Shown here: positions 2,627-10,472 of the stretch, in pieces | How positions within the stretch are numbered: the stretch's first letter is position 1 | Layout of the letters: each line of letters starts with the position of its first letter | NCBI GenBank assembly: GCA_043816185.1 | Contig: JBDRIG010000017.1 | Coordinates: 1 to 10,472 of the forward strand | DNA: 10,472 bases | DNA from: Elusimicrobiota bacterium | GTDB lineage: Bacteria; Elusimicrobiota; UBA8919 | Direction: 5' to 3' | Made by a program: the position numbers and the translations under genes | Notes under the pieces: generated by a model | What the model was told of the DNA's origin: nothing | Databases searched by the model: none | The model's input: only the letters and a program-made list of their open reading frames with translations

Positions 2627-3805
2627 TCAAAGTCCGAGGTCGGCGGGCACCCTACCAAGCGAATGCAATATCGAAATTACCTTTTTTATTCTCTCGTCTA
2701 TTTCTAAATCAGTTCCAGCCCGATTCGGATAGATTTCGTAGAGATCGCGATATTTTTTCGGCGTGAGATTTACCATCAAAGAATTAGCACCCGCAAGCAA
2801 ACCCGATCTTGCAGCATTTTCTTTATCCAATGTCTCTAATGCTGTTGTAACCAAAATTTTACTTTCTGGATAGAGTATTCTTGCCCTCGCAGTTGTTTCC
2901 AAAACCAACTCAAGCGATGGAGATTGAAAATTACTTAATGGTGTATCTGGATGTGGAATAAAAGGCCCAAAAGAAAACAATTCTGTTTTTAAATCGTTCG
3001 ATAATTTGATATTGTTTAGAACATCTTTTTCCGTCTCATCTGGTAGACCAATTAAAAAACCAGTCATAATCAAATACCCAAGTTCGGTTAATTTTTTTAT
3101 TAAATTTAATCTATCGGATAATTTGCACTCGGGCTTTATTTTTTTATAAATTTCTTCGTTGCTCGTCTCAAATCGCAACAGTACTCCCCTAACACCTGCT
3201 TCATATAATTTTACAAAAGTCTGAAGTTCTCTTTCACCTATACTAAAAATAAGCAATATTTTACATTTTTCAAATATTTTTTTTGTTAATGCCAACAATT
3301 TTTCGTCGTCATACCATAAATCTTCGCCTGATTGTAACACCAATGCCTTAAAGCCCAATTTATTTACTGCGTAATCACACAGGTCAACTATTTCGTCAAT
3401 TTCCATTCTGTATCTTTTAAGTTTGCAATTATCTTTTCGCAAACCACAATACAAACAATTACTTCTACAATAATTCGAAAATTCTATAATTCCATGAACA
3501 CAAGATGCGTTGCCAATATGTTTTTGTCTAACGGAGTTTGCAATCTGATAGATATCTTTTGTTTGGCGAGTAAGTCGTAGGTCTGTTTCTTTTAGTTGGA
3601 AGAAAAATTCCTTCCAGGTTTGTAAAATTTCTTTTGCTTCGTCTGGTAAAACTTTTTGTATAACAAATCCACCTTGTGCATATACATAATCGCCTAATGC
3701 GAGTTCAATAAAATCGTTTCGTACTTTTTTGCTTATATCAAAATATTCTATCGTGATAATACTGCCAGTTATTTCAGTTACTTTGCCAGGAATTGCATAA
3801 CACAT
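2627..3805 (-). CDS. hydE: HypC-HydE fusion: N-terminal HypC/HupF chaperone domain plus HydE-like radical SAM maturase (392 aa)
   Basis: Likely start is ATG 3805, giving MCYAIPGKV...LGDYVYAQGGFVIQKV.PDEAKEIL.TW (HypC signature MC.aiPgkv, Cys2, residues about 1-66). It is followed by IANSVRQKHIG...GIIEFSNYCRSNCLYCGLR (CX3CX2C at 113/117/120), VLQSGED, LLRFET, GFLIGLP, GPFIPHPDTPL, TTALETL, and GANSLMVNLTPKKYRDLYEIYPNR (HydE-type C-terminal Yx2YP). Confidence 0.9.
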   Translation of the reverse strand: MCYAIPGKVTEITGSIITIEYFDISKKVRNDFIELALGDYVYAQGGFVIQKVLPDEAKEILQTWKEFFFQLKETDLRLTRQTKDIYQIANSVRQKHIGNASCVHGIIEFSNYCRSNCLYCGLRKDNCKLKRYRMEIDEIVDLCDYAVNKLGFKALVLQSGEDLWYDDEKLLALTKKIFEKCKILLIFSIGERELQTFVKLYEAGVRGVLLRFETSNEEIYKKIKPECKLSDRLNLIKKLTELGYLIMTGFLIGLPDETEKDVLNNIKLSNDLKTELFSFGPFIPHPDTPLSNFQSPSLELVLETTARARILYPESKILVTTALETLDKENAARSGLLAGANSLMVNLTPKKYRDLYEIYPNRAGTDLEIDERIKKVISILHSLGRVPADLGL

Positions 3806-3850
3806 AATAGTTACCAGTTGGCTCGTCTTCAACGAAATTGTTCGGTTGCT

Positions 3851-3909
3851 ACGCTTCCTCGGGACGACAGGCGAGATTGCCACGAGCCGATAAATCGGAC
3901 TCTGGCAAT
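3851..3909 (+). repeat. Degenerate REP-like repeat remnants between hydG and hypC-hydE
   Basis: Copy 2 of the 24-bp repeat (3851-3874). GAGATTGCCACG (3873-3884) is the exact reverse complement of 2019-2030 in the MITE-like element. Hairpin CCGAT-aa-ATCGG at 3887-3898. Confidence 0.65.
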
Positions 3910-3944
3910 AGCTAGCACAGAGCCCATCCGTCCCATAGTCCCTA

Positions 3945-5342
3945 CTAAAAAAATAGGTCTCTTTCGCCGTGTTTAATTTTATTTAATTTTTCTGTTGCTA
4001 ACTTTTTTATATTTTCATCTTCAATTTTATCAAGATAAAAATTTATTACTTCATAACCTTTTTTATAAACACTATCATGTTCAATGCGAGCAAAATCTTC
4101 AAGGTATTCGGCGAATGTTAAACAAGCATTCGGTCGACAAAAATTATGTATTTCACCGTCTTTGGCAAAATTCATAAACGCCTTACCAGTTCTATTTAAG
4201 CGATAGCAAGCAGTACAAAAACTTGGTAATAAATAGTCGTTTAAGACATCTTCAATAACCTCCACTAATGGTCTATGATCAGACAATATAAATTGCCCTG
4301 CATTTTTATGTCCTGCGTTTTCATCCTTTTTACCATACCCACCAGGCGAAGCATTTGAAGCGGCCGATGTTTGTGATATACCAACTTTGAACGCTAATTT
4401 TCTTATTTCTGGTTTTTCACGGGTTGAGATAATCATACCTGTATATGGTACTGCAAGTCGCAACACAGCAATAAGTTTGAGAAAATCGTCGTCGCTAACC
4501 CCATATTCTGGTTTGTAAGTAACCTCTGGTGCATTGCGAAATCTTGGTACAGAAATTGTGTGCGGTCCGACATCATATTTTTTATCAAAATATTGTGCAT
4601 GTGAAATTAAGGACAATACTTCAAATCGCCAATCGTAAAGCCCAAATAAAACTCCAATACCAAAATCATCAATTCCCGCCTCAAATGCGCGTTCATGGGC
4701 AGTAATTTGTCTATCATAATCCGCTTTTGGTCCACGATGCAATTTTCGATATGTTTCACGGTGATATGTTTCCTGAAATAATTGATAAGTACCAATCTTT
4801 GCTTGTTTTAATTTTTTATAATTTTCAACCGTTGTCGCTGCAATGTTTACATTTATCCGATGGATACTACCCTTATCTGTTTTGACAGAATATATTTTTT
4901 CAATCACATTAACGACATAATCAATTGGATTATCGATAGCGTCTTCGCCGAATTCAAGCAAAACTCTTTTATGCCCCATGTTTATTAAAAATTTTATTTG
5001 TTCTTCAATTTCTTCAATCGAAAGTTTTTCGCGAATCAAAATTTTATTTCTTATATGAAAATTGCAATACTCACAATCATTCATACAGTAATTTGAAACA
5101 TATAACGGTGCAAAAAATACCAATCGCTCGCCGTAAATCTCTTCTTTGATATTGGATGCAATACTAAATAATTCCTGAAGCAACTCGGCATCTTTAAAAT
5201 TTATTAAATATCCGATTTCTTTTAATTCCAAACCATTTTTCTTTTTTGCTTTATCTAATATATTTCTAATTATTTCTTTGGTAGGATTTTTTGTTTGAAT
5301 TAAAATATTATTTATTTTTTCTTCGTCTATTATTTTATTCAT
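3945..5342 (-). CDS. hydG: HydG radical SAM maturase (tyrosine lyase, Fe(CO)2CN synthon-forming; [FeFe]-hydrogenase H-cluster family)
   Basis: FAPLYVSNYCMNDCEYC (CX3CX2C), RINVNIAATT, IGTYQLFQETYH, GPHTISVPR (dangler-Fe His), PSFCTAC-X22-C (auxiliary cluster motif, absent from ThiH) and C-terminal GERDLFF. Starts 2 nt after the hypA stop. Confidence 0.95.
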   Translation of the reverse strand: MNKIIDEEKINNILIQTKNPTKEIIRNILDKAKKKNGLELKEIGYLINFKDAELLQELFSIASNIKEEIYGERLVFFAPLYVSNYCMNDCEYCNFHIRNKILIREKLSIEEIEEQIKFLINMGHKRVLLEFGEDAIDNPIDYVVNVIEKIYSVKTDKGSIHRINVNIAATTVENYKKLKQAKIGTYQLFQETYHRETYRKLHRGPKADYDRQITAHERAFEAGIDDFGIGVLFGLYDWRFEVLSLISHAQYFDKKYDVGPHTISVPRFRNAPEVTYKPEYGVSDDDFLKLIAVLRLAVPYTGMIISTREKPEIRKLAFKVGISQTSAASNASPGGYGKKDENAGHKNAGQFILSDHRPLVEVIEDVLNDYLLPSFCTACYRLNRTGKAFMNFAKDGEIHNFCRPNACLTFAEYLEDFARIEHDSVYKKGYEVINFYLDKIEDENIKKLATEKLNKIKHGERDLFF

Positions 5343-5344
5343 TT

Positions 5345-5590
5345 TTAATTTTTCCCTTCAATAGATTTAATAACAATTCCTTTTTCTATGATTTTTTCTA
5401 TCTCCAATTTTACGTTTTCAAGAATTGTTCCTTTAGACAAATACTCAAAACATAATTTTACTGATTCAACTGTTAAATGACCATCTTCACATAATGCAAG
5501 CGAAACGCGCTCTATCTTATTTATATTATTTTTTTGTGCTTGACTGAGAATCTCTTTTATTACCGATTCGGTAATTGACCATTCATGCAT
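5345..5590 (-). CDS. hypA: Short HypA/HybF nickel chaperone lacking the zinc-finger domain (81 aa)
   Basis: ATG 5590 with SD GGAGG 5 nt upstream gives MHEWSI (Ni-binding MHE). It retains CFEYLSKGTILENVKLEIE and the terminal strand IVIKSIE but has no CxxC motifs. The start overlaps the protease stop. Confidence 0.88.
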   Translation of the reverse strand: MHEWSITESVIKEILSQAQKNNINKIERVSLALCEDGHLTVESVKLCFEYLSKGTILENVKLEIEKIIEKGIVIKSIEGKN

Positions 5591-6149
5591 TGTTTCCTCC
5601 AAAATTACTGACTAATTTTAATATCAGTTCACAAGTTTTTGGTATTGCATTTTTTAATGTATCAGATAATTCTGATGTATCTATTTGTGGAATATTTTCT
5701 ACCTGACAAGCAATAATTGCAATATCTATATGACACAGCTCTTTTAGTTCTTTCAATAAATTTGACGTCGGTAGTTGATGCATAGAAAAATCATCAATTT
5801 TATTTTTTGGTAGTTCATCAATCGATATTTCAAAAATTTCACCAGGTTTTTTTTTAGCGTCCACCGAATCAACTATAATAATTTTTTTCGGTTTTGTTTC
5901 AGTGAGAATAACATCAAAAAGTATTTCCCTTATACCAGTTTTAGCATCAATAAAAGCAATATTTTCTGGCAACTTATAATTTTTTTGTAAATATTCAATG
6001 ACTGTGGGGCCAAATCCATCATCGCCAAACAATATATTGCCACATCCTAAAACAAGAATGGTTGGGTTGTTAGAGTGATTGGTAGTTGGAACTGCGATTT
6101 GAGTTGATGGGGTTTTAGAATTGTTGTGATTGAGGTTATTTTTCGACAT
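5583..6149 (-). CDS. [NiFe]-hydrogenase maturation endopeptidase (HycI/HybD family, most like the FrhD type)
   Basis: ILVLGCGNILFGDDGFG, FIDAKTG, IIIVDSVD...PGEI and FSMHQLP motifs. It starts 6 nt after the large-subunit stop and has an N-terminal Asn/Thr/Ser-rich extension of about 30 aa. Confidence 0.93.
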   Translation of the reverse strand: MSKNNLNHNNSKTPSTQIAVPTTNHSNNPTILVLGCGNILFGDDGFGPTVIEYLQKNYKLPENIAFIDAKTGIREILFDVILTETKPKKIIIVDSVDAKKKPGEIFEISIDELPKNKIDDFSMHQLPTSNLLKELKELCHIDIAIIACQVENIPQIDTSELSDTLKNAIPKTCELILKLVSNFGGNNA

Positions 6150-6155
6150 TTATGC

Positions 6156-7457
6156 TCACAAATTATTAATTTTTATCATATGAACGGCACAAGATATACA
6201 AGGGTCATATGTACGAATTACCATCTCTAATTTAAGCTCCATCTCTTTCACCTCTGTTTTATTCTTCAACAGATTTTCCGCTGCTACCTTTAAATCCTTC
6301 TCTATATTTGCACAATTTATCGCTGTTGGAGTTATGATGTCACAAGAAACGCATTTTCCATTTTCATCAAATTCATAGTGATGATAAAGTGTTCCACGAG
6401 GAGCTTCTAATGCACCAGTTCCCTTACATTTTTTTAATTTTATTTTAGGAGCTGGTTCATCTTTGATTCCATCTTTGATAATCTCGTCGATAATCTCCAT
6501 ACTTCTTTGAATAGAATACACCAATTCTACTGCCTGTGCTAAATTATTATAGAGCGGATTTGTATGCTCTTTTGTAAATTTGGCAATATTCATCGCTTCT
6601 TTTGATTCACCGTAAAACATATCCCCAAACAACATAAGTCGTGAAAGGGAGCCAACCATAAATGGTTTTCCTTTGTAGGTTGTATGTTTTGCTCGTGATT
6701 GTTTCAAAACTGCTTCGTTGCACAGTTTTTTATACTCATCTATTTTAAGTTCTACACCGTCGGAAATACTGATACTTTCCCCGTGAAAACTGAATTTTTC
6801 TTTTTCTGGTTTAAGTGCTGTAAGATGTTCTGGGGCATCAATTATCGGAAAAACCTCTAATTCAGAAAAAAACTTTACCGTCTTTAAGCCACTATCAATT
6901 GCTTTTTTTAATCCATCTTTTATTGTAAGTAATTCAATTTCTGAGGGAAGTTTTCCAAAACCACTAATTTTTGTATTTATTGGATGAACTGGTCTTCCAC
7001 CGCCGATTAGTTCTTGAATTGTGTTGCCAAGTTTTTTAAGCGAAAGTCCCATTTTTGCAATGTCAGGATATTTTTGTGCTAATGCTATCACGGAAGTAAA
7101 CCCAAAATGGTCGGGTGCAACTAGACAAAATAGATGAAGTGCGTGGCTTTCAATCATTTCTCCGCAGTGTAAAAGTTCACGCAACAATTTTGTTTGCTTT
7201 GAAACATTTATTCCAAACGCATTTTCAATAGCAGCAAGTGAGGTAAGCATATGCGACGAACTGCATATCGCACAAATTCTGCAAACAATTCCTGGAATCT
7301 CATCATATGATTTACCGACAATTAAAAATTCAAAAAATCTTGAACCTTCAAAAATTTCAAGTTTAACGTCTTGTACAACACCGTCTTTAATATCAACTGT
7401 TACACCACCCGATCCCTCAACCCTGCCTATATGTTCAATCTTTATATTTTCGCTCAT
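6156..7457 (-). CDS. hyhL: Group 3b [NiFe]-hydrogenase large (alpha) subunit (HyhL; HydA in Pyrococcus nomenclature)
   Basis: RVEG, L1 RICAICSSSH, IESHALH, EAPRGTLYH, IITPTAIN and L2 RTYDPCISCAVH, followed by a 7-aa cleavable tail MIKINNL. ATGA overlap with the small subunit. Confidence 0.96.
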   Translation of the reverse strand: MSENIKIEHIGRVEGSGGVTVDIKDGVVQDVKLEIFEGSRFFEFLIVGKSYDEIPGIVCRICAICSSSHMLTSLAAIENAFGINVSKQTKLLRELLHCGEMIESHALHLFCLVAPDHFGFTSVIALAQKYPDIAKMGLSLKKLGNTIQELIGGGRPVHPINTKISGFGKLPSEIELLTIKDGLKKAIDSGLKTVKFFSELEVFPIIDAPEHLTALKPEKEKFSFHGESISISDGVELKIDEYKKLCNEAVLKQSRAKHTTYKGKPFMVGSLSRLMLFGDMFYGESKEAMNIAKFTKEHTNPLYNNLAQAVELVYSIQRSMEIIDEIIKDGIKDEPAPKIKLKKCKGTGALEAPRGTLYHHYEFDENGKCVSCDIITPTAINCANIEKDLKVAAENLLKNKTEVKEMELKLEMVIRTYDPCISCAVHMIKINNL

Positions 7458-8224
7458 TTTTTATTTTCCTCAAATTGGGTCTGTTTTAAGTTGGGATTAA
7501 ATATAAACATACCCATCTTTCTTTTTATATCCTCAATAGAATATCCTTTATCTAAAAGAATCTGAACCTCCGACGCATAATTCGCTTCGACAACGGGCCC
7601 ATGACAACCAGTACACGGAATATTATTTCCAGGACATCTTGCCTTACAACCCTCGACTGTAACGGGACCCAAGCAAAAAAGACCTCTTTCAACCAATAGA
7701 CATTCATACTCCATCATTTTACATTCGCTGCACAAAGCAAAATTTGGAACTTCCAATACATCGCCGTGCAAAAATGCGGTAAAAACACGCAAAAACCATT
7801 TCTTCTCTATAGGACAACCTGGAAGTGATAAATCAACTTTTACGAAATTTTTAAGTGGCTGTGCGGGAATAGAATCAAAATACTCCACGCCTTTTTCTCC
7901 GTAAACATTTTTTAAAAGTTCCTCTCTCGGAACATCGTTTTTCATAGACGAAATTCCGCCACAAATGGCACAGGTTCCGATAGCAACTAAAACACCTGCT
8001 CTACTTCTTATATCTTTAAGATGTTCGAGCTCTTTTTTGGTTGAAACAACCCCTTCAACAAACGCAACATCAATTTCTTTTTCAACATTCCCCGTCTGAG
8101 CAATCACAAATGATTTTATATCAATTTTCGATACAATATCTAAAAACTCGTCTTCACAATTTAGTATCATTAGTTGATCGCCAGCGCAACCAGACAATCC
8201 ATAGATGCCGATTTTTGGTTTCAT
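7454..8224 (-). CDS. hyhS: Group 3b [NiFe]-hydrogenase small (delta) subunit (HyhS/HydD)
   Basis: GLSGCAGDQL (CxxD in place of CxxC), DVAFVEG, AIGTCA, LPGCP, CSEC..C..CLGPVT.EGC.ARCP..C.GC.G. No Tat signal. ATGA overlaps at both ends. Confidence 0.95.
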   Translation of the reverse strand: MKPKIGIYGLSGCAGDQLMILNCEDEFLDIVSKIDIKSFVIAQTGNVEKEIDVAFVEGVVSTKKELEHLKDIRSRAGVLVAIGTCAICGGISSMKNDVPREELLKNVYGEKGVEYFDSIPAQPLKNFVKVDLSLPGCPIEKKWFLRVFTAFLHGDVLEVPNFALCSECKMMEYECLLVERGLFCLGPVTVEGCKARCPGNNIPCTGCHGPVVEANYASEVQILLDKGYSIEDIKRKMGMFIFNPNLKQTQFEENKK

Positions 8225-9051
8225 ACAACCTCCGGCATATTTATAGCATCCCAGTATGTAAAAATGGGGCCATCAGTGCAAGTATATTTATGACCAACGC
8301 CACAATGCAGACACTTCCCAATTCCACATTGCATTCTTCTTTCTAAAGACATCATTATTTTATCTTTGTCAAAACCAATGCTAATAAGTTTCTTTAAGAC
8401 AAATTTGTACATTATGGGTGGTCCACAAATACCTGCATATGTTGTTTTCGCATCAAAGTTCACATAATTAAATAATTCGGTTACCACTCCAATATTAGAT
8501 TTCCATTTTCCCGATTCATCTTTATCAACTGTTAAAAGACATTTTATATCTTTTCTATTTAGAAGTGAGACAAATTCATCCTTAAAAAGTATCTCGTCAG
8601 GATTTTTTGCTCCATACATAAGAGCAATATCCTTAAAATCATTTCTATTATCGAGTGTATACCAAACAAGAGATCTGAGAGGTGCTATACCGATACCACC
8701 TGCAACAATTAATAGATTACTACCCTTTATTTTTTCAATAAAATATCCATTCCCGTAGGGCCCTCTCAAACCGATTATATCGTTTTCTTTTAATTTAAAT
8801 AGAGCACCCGTAACGCTGCCTGCACATCTGACACAGAGTTCTATAATTCCTGGTTTTGTCGGCGATGAAGAAATTGATATTGGTGCTTCGCCAGTTCCCA
8901 AAACAGACAGCATCACAAATTGACCAGGCCTGTGATTAAACTCTTGTCTTACTTTCTCATCTTCAAATCTTATTTGAAACAATTTAGTATCTTCGGTCTG
9001 CGGAATAATACCAATTATTTTTGCTAAATATGGTTGATACGGATTTTTCAC
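8221..9051 (-). CDS. hyhG: Group 3b hydrogenase gamma subunit, FAD/NAD(P)-binding plus [2Fe-2S] (HyhG; AsrB family)
   Basis: PGQFVML, GEAPISISS, RGPYGNG, AGGIGIAPLRS, CGPPIM and ERRMQCGIGKCLHC..CTDGP. SD AGGAGG (9063-9058) fits GTG 9051 (6-nt spacer) better than TTG 9054. Confidence 0.94.
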   Translation of the reverse strand: MKNPYQPYLAKIIGIIPQTEDTKLFQIRFEDEKVRQEFNHRPGQFVMLSVLGTGEAPISISSSPTKPGIIELCVRCAGSVTGALFKLKENDIIGLRGPYGNGYFIEKIKGSNLLIVAGGIGIAPLRSLVWYTLDNRNDFKDIALMYGAKNPDEILFKDEFVSLLNRKDIKCLLTVDKDESGKWKSNIGVVTELFNYVNFDAKTTYAGICGPPIMYKFVLKKLISIGFDKDKIMMSLERRMQCGIGKCLHCGVGHKYTCTDGPIFTYWDAINMPEVV

Positions 9052-9104
9052 CAAACTCCTCCTATAAAATTTTCAATTCTATTTTTTAATTTTTGCGAAT
9101 TACT

Positions 9105-9204: not shown

Positions 9205-10245
9205 TTATTCCAACGTTTCTGCCGTCTGAATTTTATTTAATTCTTCAACAATATTAATTTTTGCAGGACAGAATTCCATACATCTTCCACAGCCAACACA
9301 ACTCGGTCTACCAAAATCGCCAGCAAACGATTGTTGTTTATGTAACCACCTATGTCTAAACCTATCGGAACGGGATTTTCTGAAATTATGCCCTCCGGCA
9401 ACAATGGCATGATCACGAAATAGACAGCAATCCCATTGGCGACTTCTATTGCCTGATTCAAGATTAAGACCAACAATCTCATCGAATATTCTATAACAGT
9501 AGCAAGTTGGGCAAGTCATTGAACAGGTACCACAACTTAAACATTTATTTCCAAGTTCATCCCATAATTTACTTTTGTATTCTAAATCCATAATCTCAGG
9601 CAGGTCTCTTATATCAAGTGATCTCTTGAAACTTTTTTTTCTCAGCAATGAATGATTTTTATATTCGTCAATATCTTCTTTACTTATTTCCACAAATAAT
9701 TCCTTGGAAGAACTCACCATATCATCGCCTTTATTTGTTCCAACTTTAACCATATATGCGTCTGTTATTTCTGATAAAAACAGGTCAAACCCTTTATCGA
9801 CATAATCGGTTCCCATCGAATTGCAAAAACAAAATTCATCAGGTAGACAACTTATGCCTATTAAGAGAATATTTTCTTTTCTTGCAAAATAATATTCATC
9901 TCTGTATTGACCTGAAAAAACCAAATCTAATATCTCGATTCCATAAATATCGCAGGAATGAACGCCAAATATTATATCATGATTTTTAAGCGATTCAATT
10001 GGTTGCACAAAACCACTTTTTGAAAATTTAAACATTGTTTCAGTGGGATGGTAGAAATATTTTTTTAATGGAAGAATGGTTCTTTGATAACCAAGTTGCA
10101 TCTTTGAAACATCAGAATCGTTTTCCATTTTTTTGAAGGCAAAAGATTTTTCACCATTTTTTATTGGAATATGAACTTGACCCATTTTCCTTAAATTAAG
10201 CACAAAACTTGTAAGATTATTTTTAGAGAGTTTTAATGTCTTCAT
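9205..10245 (-). CDS. hyhB: Group 3b hydrogenase beta subunit, 4Fe-4S dicluster protein (HyhB/HydB; AsrA family)
   Basis: FGVHSCD, C..DEFCFC, CLSCGTCSMTCPTCYC, RQWDCC and CVGCGRCMEFCPAKI. SD AGGA lies upstream. First gene of a beta-gamma-delta-alpha order. Confidence 0.94.
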   Translation of the reverse strand: MKTLKLSKNNLTSFVLNLRKMGQVHIPIKNGEKSFAFKKMENDSDVSKMQLGYQRTILPLKKYFYHPTETMFKFSKSGFVQPIESLKNHDIIFGVHSCDIYGIEILDLVFSGQYRDEYYFARKENILLIGISCLPDEFCFCNSMGTDYVDKGFDLFLSEITDAYMVKVGTNKGDDMVSSSKELFVEISKEDIDEYKNHSLLRKKSFKRSLDIRDLPEIMDLEYKSKLWDELGNKCLSCGTCSMTCPTCYCYRIFDEIVGLNLESGNRSRQWDCCLFRDHAIVAGGHNFRKSRSDRFRHRWLHKQQSFAGDFGRPSCVGCGRCMEFCPAKINIVEELNKIQTAETLE

Positions 10246-10299
10246 AATGTTTTTCCTATCTTCCTGTACCGTATTTTCAAATCAATCTTGCGGTGTTAA

Positions 10300-10342
10300 A
10301 TTGCGATCGCAATATTATCAAAAAAATCTGTCTTGTCGTCAT
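10300..10342 (-). promoter_or_regulatory. Candidate operon promoter with an overlapping perfect 14-bp palindrome
   Basis: Minus strand ATGACG-N17-GATAAT, which can also be read as an extended -10 TG-A-TAATAT. The palindrome ATTGCGATCGCAAT (10300-10313) covers the expected start site. Confidence 0.4.
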
Positions 10343-10381
10343 CTATGGAAAAGCATGTCAAGTAGAAAATAGCATCCCCTT

Positions 10382-10406
10382 TGTCAAAAATCAGCATCTT
10401 TTGACA
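10382..10406. promoter_or_regulatory. Inverted repeat TGTCAAAA-N9-TTTTGACA, possible transcription-factor site
   Basis: Perfect 8-bp arms about 140-160 nt upstream of the operon start. Each arm contains TTGACA on one strand. Confidence 0.4.
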
Positions 10407-10472
10407 CGCTTCCTTCCCGCTAAACGGGTGGAGATAAACGAATATAAATTTGTAAATGACACCAATAATAAA

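Follow-up and report, generated by a model that had tools for sequence, protein, structure and literature searches.

How a [NiFe] hydrogenase can obtain an iron with one CO and two CN ligands, when the ligand-making enzyme encoded beside it is a HydG expected to deliver iron with two CO and one CN, is the question raised by a contig of an Elusimicrobiota bacterium (JBDRIG010000017.1 of assembly GCA_043816185.1). The window analysed here is this entire contig (C17), 10,472 bases long. Its minus strand carries eight genes head to tail, encoding the beta, gamma, delta and alpha subunits of the hydrogenase, an endopeptidase, HypA, HydG and a fusion of HypC with HydE (Table 1). The intact HydG and the HypC-HydE fusion beside the hydrogenase point to an undescribed route to the Fe-CO/CN centre. 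Our reading of the sequences, to which we assign a probability of about 0.6, is that HydG, HypC-HydE, a mini-HypA and the endopeptidase would form a self-contained cassette that replaces HypC, HypD, HypE and HypF (and HypB) and gives Fe(CN)2(CO). Taken separately, it appears quite probable that the [NiFe] enzymes of this genome receive their Fe-CO/CN unit from the cassette, and rather probable that its product also has the canonical ligand set.

HydG keeps all catalytic motifs and carries a signature of its own

A previous interpretation of the window, made without database searches (the sequence-only reading), had described HydG as neither a ThiH nor a visibly decayed protein, and this description was borne out. 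HydG exceeded by far the cut-off of its own family model (531.2 bits with TIGR03955, cut-off 312.15), whereas the ThiH model gave 272.9 bits, below its cut-off of 380. The protein aligned end to end with the solved HydGs 4wcx (496 bits) and 4rtb (411 bits). The radical S-adenosylmethionine (SAM) motif CX3CX2C (C86/C90/C93, positions 5064-5087), the dangler-iron motif GPHTISVPR (residues 259-267, positions 4542-4568) and the auxiliary-cluster motif CX2CX22C (C376/C379/C402, positions 4137-4217) are all present; His261 of the dangler motif presumably corresponds to H265 in the numbering of T. italicus HydG. From these fully conserved motifs, the predicted product is Fe(Cys)(CO)2(CN), made from tyrosine.

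In order to compare HydGs of the two contexts, 52 full-length HydGs encoded at most 1.5 kb from a fusion (module HydGs) were set against 11 [FeFe]-type HydGs, ten from Elusimicrobiota genomes with a plain HydE and one from a Lachnospiraceae metagenome-assembled genome (MAG). The six cluster cysteines and the dangler-His motif were invariant across these 52 and 11 sequences and a further 119 database homologues. Clade-specific substitutions around the dangler site, which the sequence-only reading had suggested looking for, are not found there. Five other positions separate the module HydGs from the [FeFe]-type ones, namely H96, R211, Q212, H216 and L288, once the differences common to T. italicus HydG have been removed (alignment inspected by eye). 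The full signature occurred in 44 of the 52 module HydGs and 104 of the 119 database homologues and in 0 of the 11 [FeFe]-type sequences, and both solved [FeFe]-type HydGs are without it in the alignment inspected by eye. H96 lies three residues past the radical-SAM motif, at a position that is Arg in both solved HydGs, and the position of L288 is Lys in both of these and in 10 of the 11 [FeFe]-type HydGs. E130, P135, G158, T170, Y175, L408 and I440 were also considered as clade-specific and were rejected, being common to T. italicus HydG. A quick tree, for which four ThiH-like proteins served as root, placed 50 of the 52 module HydGs in one clade with a Shimodaira-Hasegawa-like approximate likelihood-ratio test (SH-aLRT) support of 97, and this clade was nested among [FeFe]-type sequences. 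The signature residues may line a channel or form a docking surface.

These results bear on the possibility that the ligand partition is solved inside HydG, in which case this clade would release Fe(CO)(CN)2 and the HydE domain would only remove the cysteine. The grouping of most module HydGs in one clade, the distribution of the five-residue signature and the two CN provided by two tyrosines all speak for it. Yet the five positions lie outside the dangler-His motif and both cluster motifs in a protein that aligns over its whole length with T. italicus HydG, two fusion-adjacent HydGs keep the [FeFe] signature, and the five residues may equally form a docking surface. A change confined to HydG would also leave the remodelled cavity of the HydE domain, described below, unexplained. 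We consider this possibility unlikely.

The large subunit keeps the two-cyanide pocket

The large subunit aligned full length with the alpha subunit of P. furiosus sulfhydrogenase I (SHI; 9nez, 342 bits), and its best PDB matches were P. furiosus SHI and the T. kodakarensis cytosolic hydrogenase. It contains R60-I-C62-A-I-C65 (7263-7280), P353-R354-G355 (6393-6401), P377-T378 (6324-6329) and, at the C-terminus, D418-P-C420-I-S-C423-A-V-H426 (6180-6206), which is followed by a 7-residue tail (6159-6179). The stretches EAPRG, DIITPTA and DPCISC are identical in 9nez. The Arg and Ser/Thr of such motifs hydrogen-bond the two CN ligands of the active-site iron. Both the pocket residues and the cysteines are invariant across six module-linked large subunits of 3b type. 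The claim that the large subunit keeps the four cysteines and the Arg and Thr of a two-cyanide pocket is therefore confirmed by the motifs and by the identity with 9nez, and the stoichiometry puzzle built on it is real: a canonical-looking HydG shares an operon with a [NiFe] enzyme having a canonical two-cyanide pocket.

One element of the puzzle had to be revised. The sequence-only reading took HydG to yield the iron complex plus a released cyanide. The product, Fe(Cys)(CO)2(CN), stands, but the second cyanide is not simply released: according to the text available from two papers, it binds to the auxiliary [4Fe-4S] cluster of HydG, where it triggers release of the product (PMC8855341, PMC10114646). 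Two tyrosines give 2 CO and 2 CN, and the atoms needed for Fe(CN)2(CO) are therefore available. The puzzle is softer than first stated, in that the question is the partition of 2 CO and 2 CN and not the supply of cyanide.

The genome lacks the Hyp core and the other [FeFe] genes

The host genome comprises 1.44 Mb in 112 contigs with no N in the sequence, and is estimated to be 94.3% complete and 0.54% contaminated. Family searches of the genome found no HypB and no HypD; the best HypE match reached 39.7 bits (cut-off 252), and HypF was represented only by a 49.8-bit acylphosphatase-like piece. The same searches gave no [FeFe] hydrogenase (HydA) domain, and a best HydF match of 46.7 bits (cut-off 326). 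Searching the genome by tblastn with HypD, HypE and HypF of sibling genomes and with HydF and HydA of the phylum returned nothing real. The window copies of HydG, the HypC domain and HypA are the only ones in the genome, where HydE exists only as the HypC fusion.

The genomic context of the missing genes was compared with that in relatives. In a genome of the same genus (G001) and in one of the same family (G010), hypC-hypD-hypE lie between two conserved genes, which are adjacent here on contig C61 (18685-19401 and 19566-20681), an AT-rich stretch of 164 bases separating them. The hypCDE genes are cleanly deleted at the syntenic site, and since the flanking genes adjoin on one contig, their absence is no assembly gap. 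Of the hypF site, contig C89 retains the two upstream genes and then runs on for 21 kb with unrelated genes and no hypF. In G001, hypD itself is split into two overlapping open reading frames in different frames, with stops inside the family match (L047, G001:C73 2716-3808), which reflects either a sequencing error or an early decay of Hyp in the genus.

These results decide on one of the solutions offered by the sequence-only reading, that is, that HydG supplies only CO, for use by a regular HypCDEF system encoded at another place. Formation of CO by HydG is proven, and the origin of CO under anaerobic conditions is the most pressing open question in the available text of a 2025 minireview (PMC12134894). 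For this genome the solution is refuted, as HypB, HypD, HypE and HypF are missing and hypCDE is deleted at the syntenic site. It fares no better in the other carriers treated below, where HypD, HypE and HypF occur in 0 of 10 fusion genomes of the phylum, HypD in 0 of 3 outside it, and none of the three at the best 80 metagenome loci. We regard it as highly improbable.

The HypC-HydE fusion has a HypC start and a rebuilt HydE cavity

The start of the fusion had been placed at GTG 3883. We corrected it to ATG 3805, from which the protein begins M-C-Y-A-I-P-G, since all 12 aligned fusions begin M-C; the GTG extension is spurious and is created by a repeat insertion (3806-3944). M1, C2 and P6 were invariant in the 12 aligned fusions, and this M-C-x-x-x-P start is the HypC signature, which exposes Cys2. 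Among 78 metagenome fusions, defined as those of at least 380 residues, C2 and P6 were present in 76, and the other two stop short of the N-terminus; the whole M-C...P...Q signature was found in 74. The HypC domain scored above the cut-off of PF01455 (53.6 bits, cut-off 28.5) and below that of TIGR00074 (42.6 bits, cut-off 48), and aligned with the HypC structure 2z1c (E 9e-11). The His of T. kodakarensis HypC (in GDWVIVHTGF) aligns to Gln44 of the fusion; we take this conserved histidine to be His51 of the E. coli protein. Gln occupied the position in all 78 metagenome fusions and in 11 of the 12 aligned ones.

The HydE domain scored 245.5 bits with TIGR03956, under the cut-off of 254.6, yet this was the best family by far, and it matched T. 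maritima HydE (7o1o) with 230 bits. The roles of the residues compared here were taken from the available text of PMC10114646 and PMC11826987, the latter a computational study. Of the two methionines that handle iron in the T. maritima enzyme, M291 is kept as Met344, invariant in the fusions, and M224 is Met in at least 90% of them (position 276). T269, which contacts a CN ligand, is also kept. The other contacts have changed. R54, which contacts the CN ligand of the Fe(I) product, is replaced by His104, with Cys102 two residues before it, and the resulting C-x-H was present in 90 of 90 fusions as compared to [H/Y]-x-R in 11 of 11 plain HydEs. T134, a CN contact, is Ile or another, mostly hydrophobic residue in the fusions. 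R155, also in contact with CN, is Gly, Ala or Ser, and the position before it is Arg or, less often, Tyr, Asn or Lys. Among the 11 plain HydEs, the R54 equivalent was kept in all, T134 in 10 and R155 in all. K309, the proposed radical relay, is mostly Arg in the fusions. The pattern suggests that the part of HydE which starts the radical chemistry is kept and that the part which holds and pairs the products has been rebuilt.

The sequence-only reading had proposed a CO-to-CN exchange, perhaps in HypC-HydE with use of the second cyanide. The replacement of the R54, T134 and R155 contacts gives this proposal indirect support, while T269 is kept and the exchange itself is what we infer. Tentatively, the fused HydE domain may be regarded as the best candidate site for the adjustment. 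That every member has HypC tethered to HydE fits the interception of a short-lived intermediate. Predicted complexes of the large subunit with the HypC domain (residues 1-75) scored 0.23 and 0.12 against a mark of 0.32, a result that weighs neither way.

A second [NiFe] hydrogenase is retained after the loss of hyp

Contig C70 of the same genome encodes a second [NiFe] hydrogenase, with a small subunit (13756-14571), a large subunit (14568-16061) and its own protease. Its large subunit keeps RICGVC, APRG and DPCLACAVH, and its identity with the orthologues of five sibling genomes is 80-89%. These five genomes all contain HypC, HypD and HypE; HypF was matched in four of them (not in G006). This family-conserved hydrogenase, which we regard as vertically inherited, stays intact despite the loss of hyp. 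If the C70 enzyme is still made in active form, the cassette must therefore supply a cofactor that a canonical Hyp-type enzyme accepts. Two open reading frames follow the hydrogenase genes (region C70:13756-18305); their starts resemble a MetV-type zinc-ribbon protein and MetF, which is only a guess.

The close relation between the C70 enzyme and its HypCDEF-matured orthologues argues that the same cofactor fits both, and disfavours a further suggestion of the sequence-only reading, namely that the mature enzymes carry a non-standard Fe(CO)2(CN), unchanged from HydG. In chemical terms this would be the simplest outcome: no component of the cassette is known to introduce a second cyanide, and HypE and HypF, which make cyanide in the canonical system, are missing. 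On the other hand, Arg and Thr of the pocket are invariant in the six module-linked 3b-type large subunits, and PRG was found in 13 of 14 other module-linked large subunits, the remaining one having no match to the pattern. A non-standard ligand set appears decidedly unlikely.

The fusion occurs without HypD, HypE and HypF in other genomes and recurs in metagenomes

Of 401 genomes sampled from the phylum, 211 had a HydE relative (E up to 1e-40) and 10, including this one, had the HypC-HydE form, in seven families. The 10 fusion genomes were compared with 10 other genomes of the host's own family that are fusion-free. HydG over cut-off was present in 10/10 of the former and 0/10 of the latter, whereas HypD and HypE were each found in 0/10 as compared to 10/10, and HypF in 0/10 as compared to 8/10. 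[FeFe] HydA was found in neither group (0/10 in both). The [NiFe] large-subunit family PF00374 was matched in 10/10 of both groups, with several of the matches spanning only the first 69 profile positions; these may be complex-I-like or group 4 proteins. In control genomes with a plain HydE, HydA and HydF were each present in 5/5, and therefore the searches do detect these genes in the phylum.

HydG adjoins the fusion in 8 of the 9 other fusion genomes. Neighbours in the fusion loci include a full-length HypA, a MobB-HycI fusion and a group 4 Mrp-type [NiFe] operon. In G074 (L029:11537-12481), a MobB-type P-loop domain is joined to a HycI endopeptidase directly upstream of HypA and HydG, and G060 has a relative of this protein (L032:7120-8070) in which only the MobB part matched Pfam. 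The MobB-HycI protein may be a stand-in for the missing HypB GTPase.

A scan of metagenomes with the alignment of the 12 fusions as query found 483 stretches encoding a relative of the fusion. Loci were counted in the best 80 of these 483 stretches (1.4-17.7 kb), annotated by BLAST with a handful of reference proteins: HydG was found at 58, HypA at 17, a [NiFe] large subunit at 13 and an endopeptidase at 12, while HypD, HypE, HypF and HydF were found at 0. A match to HydA at L087 was rejected, being an Fe-S match of only 63 residues. With 199 cluster representatives and the 483 metagenome stretches, the module is kept across several phyla, and public source names place its carriers in Elusimicrobiota, Omnitrophota, WOR-3, Planctomycetota and others, with Brocadiales and Scalinduaceae also among the names; those of the closest homologues of HydG and of the fusion include Elusimicrobia and Elusimicrobiota. 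The public names of the fusion itself (P0125-P0243) disagree, as they range over '[FeFe] hydrogenase maturase HydE', 'radical SAM protein', 'HypC/HybG/HupF family chaperone' and 'biotin synthase', and the linked HydGs are named [FeFe] maturase or '2-iminoacetate synthase'.

Locus L068 is the only one of the 80 at which an [FeFe] hydrogenase and the module stand together. A bifurcating-type [FeFe] operon (HydB fused to a GltD-like part, HydA and HydC) with two response regulators stands there immediately ahead of the fusion, HypA, a HypB-type GTPase, a SPASM radical-SAM gene, ThiF and HydG (L068:1288-14167).

If HydG and the fusion matured an [FeFe] hydrogenase, their place beside a [NiFe] operon would be incidental. 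Public records do annotate both as [FeFe] maturases, L068 has its [FeFe] operon upstream, one fusion genome outside the phylum has HydA, and one within it (G015) has HydF. Against these stand the absence of HydA from 10/10 fusion genomes of the phylum as compared to its presence in 5/5 plain-HydE controls, the occurrence of HydF in only 1/10, and the nature of the fused domain, HypC being a [NiFe]-specific chaperone with an N-terminal Cys. The partners at the loci are HypA and a [NiFe] endopeptidase, and even the L068 module holds HypA and a HypB-type GTPase. In the genome studied here, where the sequence-only reading had allowed that HydG might serve an [FeFe] enzyme encoded elsewhere, neither HydA nor HydF over cut-off was found, and such a role is refuted for this genome. 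An [FeFe] role is hardly credible.

The same distribution, together with the state of the operon, bears on whether the system functions at all. The cassette or the hydrogenases could be non-functional, owing to recent transfer or decay, or the Fe-CO/CN product could be of another kind and not destined for a hydrogenase. The contig is short and flanked by dispersed repeats, one of which is inserted between hydG and the fusion gene, and the window fusion has Leu at the M224 equivalent. The eight genes are, nevertheless, intact and tightly packed on one strand, the module is conserved across several phyla, and the C70 hydrogenase is intact after the loss of hyp. We judge a non-functional or unrelated system to be very unlikely.

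Proposed route to the Fe(CN)2(CO) centre

According to our proposal, the cassette would work in four steps. In the first, as is established for canonical HydG and as the conserved motifs suggest here, HydG would split two tyrosines and build Fe(II)(Cys)(CO)2(CN) on the dangler iron, the second cyanide being held on the auxiliary cluster. In the second, the HydE domain would take over this complex, and a radical attack on the cysteine sulfur would strip the cysteine and leave a labile Fe(I)(CO)2(CN)(S), a reaction established for T. maritima HydE and presumed for the fused domain. The Fe(I) species after HydE is described as highly labile in the available text of the computational study (PMC11826987).

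In the third step, the rebuilt cavity, with Cys-x-His in place of Arg and two other CN contacts changed, would capture a single iron together with Cys2 of the HypC domain, so that no dimerisation would occur. Cyanide readily displaces CO on Fe(I) carbonyl thiolates. The second cyanide from HydG might replace one CO before or during the hand-over to the large subunit, giving Fe(CN)2(CO). HydE would in this way have been turned from a 'dimeriser' into a 'monomer trap', in which Cys102-x-His104 and the tethered HypC Cys2 hold the labile Fe(I) while the second cyanide displaces CO; we put this forward as a tentative and rather doubtful suggestion, by which CO and both CN would come from tyrosine without HypD, HypE or HypF. 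In the last step, on the model of the Hyp literature, the HypC domain would deliver the unit to the apo large subunit, mini-HypA would add nickel and the protease would cut the 7-residue tail.

Several points weigh against the cassette as a self-contained source of Fe(CN)2(CO). Each of these mechanistic steps is deduced from sequence comparison, and the CO-to-CN exchange, both its place and its occurrence, is inferred only. A HydG with all known catalytic residues should make Fe(CO)2(CN), which has the wrong stoichiometry. The HypC domain, without the conserved His and without its partner HypD, may not hold iron as HypC does. In the fusion of the window itself, the equivalent of T. maritima M224 is Leu. 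Two fusion-adjacent HydGs (L112 and L127, 2/52) lie outside the module clade and carry the [FeFe]-type signature. The single fusion genome with HydF, G015, has an [FeFe]-type HydF-HydG pair on another contig (L035, G015:C2 7329-10062), beside an integrase gene; its fusion stands alone (L034, G015:C41), and HydA was not found in this genome. Outside the phylum, in three fusion genomes whose completeness is not given, HypD was found in 0/3 and HydA in 1/3. At one of the 80 loci (L068), a genuine [FeFe] hydrogenase operon lies just upstream of the module, and distant genes may be missed by the BLAST annotation of these loci. Finally, all carrier genomes are MAGs, in which absence is never absolute.

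Comparison with known maturation systems

The cassette resembles [FeFe] maturation by HydE and HydG in several respects: HydG is complete in its motifs and alignable from end to end, the HydE domain retains the radical-SAM cluster as well as the Met291 equivalent (Met224 also in most fusions, Leu in the window), and the hydG and hydE-type genes are adjacent, as a direct transfer of the unstable Fe(Cys)(CO)2(CN) would lead one to expect. It differs in that the genome is without HydF and HydA, HydE is fused to HypC, R54, T134 and R155 of the product cavity are replaced and Cys-x-His appears. The target also differs: at the HydE stage, [FeFe] maturation handles two irons, each with 2 CO and 1 CN, and the fragments dimerise, whereas the [NiFe] site has one iron with 1 CO and 2 CN.

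With the HypABCDEF system of E. coli and T. kodakarensis, the cassette shares a HypC-type domain with an N-terminal Cys, the HypA nickel domain, the endopeptidase and the cleavable tail. That system uses HypCD as scaffold and HypEF to make cyanide from carbamoyl phosphate; here HypB, HypD, HypE and HypF are absent, the HypC His is Gln and HypA is without a zinc domain, and radical-SAM chemistry on tyrosine would provide the ligands. Like HypX, the cassette would be a dedicated extra source of CO for [NiFe] maturation. HypX, however, acts alongside HypCDEF and makes only CO, from a C1 unit, as far as the accessible text of two papers goes (PMC6802093, PMC12134894), whereas the present genome lacks the Hyp core altogether and HydG yields CN as well.

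In the available text of a 2021 perspective, the [NiFe] centre is made without any radical SAM enzyme (PMC8855341). The minireview of 2025 considers six Hyp proteins necessary, and the words HydG, radical SAM and tyrosine are absent from its text as available (PMC12134894). Our literature search, outside which lay subscription journals and supplements, yielded no account in which HydG or HydE acts on [NiFe] enzymes and a single mention of the fusion, one sentence in a 2026 preprint. This sentence reports an atypical protein, a HydE-HypC fusion, in the [NiFe] operon of an anaerobic symbiont from the Legionellales (bioRxiv 10.64898/2026.04.11.717937). The fusion is of the same kind and is listed among the maturation genes of the operon; the part of the preprint available offers no mechanism and has 0 occurrences of HydG.

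Other features of the window

The features of the window are collected in Table 1. For all four hydrogenase subunits, the sulfhydrogenase models were the best or second-best, with scores far under the equivalog cut-offs (alpha 381 as compared to 700).

Table 1. Coordinates of the genes, domains and distinctive residues in the 10,472-base window.
Feature	Positions	Strand	Basis
Hydrogenase beta subunit (ShyB/HydB-like, 4Fe-4S dicluster)	9205..10245	-	NF040829 349 bits, PF17179; under equivalog cut-off
Gamma subunit (FAD/NAD(P)-binding, 2Fe-2S)	8221..9054	-	NF006220 331 bits; PF00175, PF10418, PF00970
Delta (small) subunit	7454..8224	-	NF040836 196 bits; PF01058
[NiFe] large (alpha) subunit, group 3b-like	6156..7457	-	NF040828 381 bits; full-length alignment with 9nez, 5yxy
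Large-subunit maturation endopeptidase (FrhD/HycI type)	5583..6149	-	TIGR00130 142.2 bits (cut-off 134.95); PF01750
Mini-HypA, 81 residues	5345..5590	-	PF01155, profile positions 1-67 of 112
HydG, 465 residues	3945..5342	-	TIGR03955 531.2 bits (cut-off 312.15)
HydG clade-specific residues	H96 5055-5057; R211-H216 4695-4712; L288 4479-4481	-	Comparison with [FeFe]-type set
Dispersed-repeat copy, 53% GC, spacer between hydG and hypC-hydE (139 nucleotides)	3806..3944	no strand	blastn within genome
HypC-HydE fusion, 392 residues	2627..3805	-	PF01455 53.6 bits; TIGR03956 245.5 bits (cut-off 254.6)
HypC domain of fusion	3581-3805	-	Cys2; Gln44 at 3674-3676 replaces HypC His
HydE domain of fusion	about 2630-3562	-	Cys102-x-His104 3494-3502; CX3CX2C 3446-3469; Met344 2774-2776

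The mini-HypA is the sole HypA found in the genome by family search. It begins MHE, consists of the N-terminal nickel domain only and has no CxxC, and so no zinc domain; GGAGG precedes its ATG at 5590. Metagenome locus L056, with the same gene order, encodes an 82-residue HypA at the equivalent position, while a full-length HypA is found in most other module loci, unlike the mini-HypA of the window. Two further minus-strand open reading frames, 141-1523 (460 residues) and 1537-1770 (77 residues), belong to no Pfam family, and the former has only a weak YD-repeat match. A tRNA scan found none, a search of the whole window against Rfam gave no match at E up to 1, and a promoter and terminator scan returned 38 promoter-like sites as compared to 38.4 expected. 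A search for sequencing runs that contain 2627-7457 listed none, from RNA or otherwise.

Three dispersed repeat families flank or interrupt the operon (3806-3944, about 1964-2112 and 10246-10472). Since all three are common to dozens of other contigs of the genome, the window contig belongs to this genome and is not mis-binned. The repeat in the spacer between hydG and the fusion gene had 38 blastn matches on 32 contigs, 15 of them within 400 nucleotides of a contig end; the stretches 1771-2626 and 10246-10472 had 66 and 46 matches in the genome, respectively. Repeat copies were also observed at C70:13524-13660, just upstream of the second hydrogenase, and at C89:21041-21185, where the breakpoint of hypF lies. 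The dispersed repeats probably fragment the assembly, and they may have mediated the rearrangements. A riboswitch in the spacer was considered and dropped, as BLAST shows a dispersed repeat, Rfam gave no match and the fold of 151 nucleotides had a z-score of -1.44.

Significance

The stoichiometry question is the sharpest experimental handle on the mechanism, and the cassette, with its four genes, is a candidate for producing [NiFe] hydrogenases more simply in heterologous hosts. The public labels of its proteins, [FeFe] maturase, 'biotin synthase' or 'HypC', mislead metabolic reconstructions of the organisms that carry it. If the proposal is true, this would be the first radical-SAM-dependent synthesis of a [NiFe] cofactor, and it would answer where CO comes from in these anaerobes by giving them a defined and testable source of both CO and CN. 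The view that no radical SAM enzyme takes part in making the [NiFe] centre, as worded in the available text of the 2021 perspective (PMC8855341), would then be overturned for many uncultured anaerobes.

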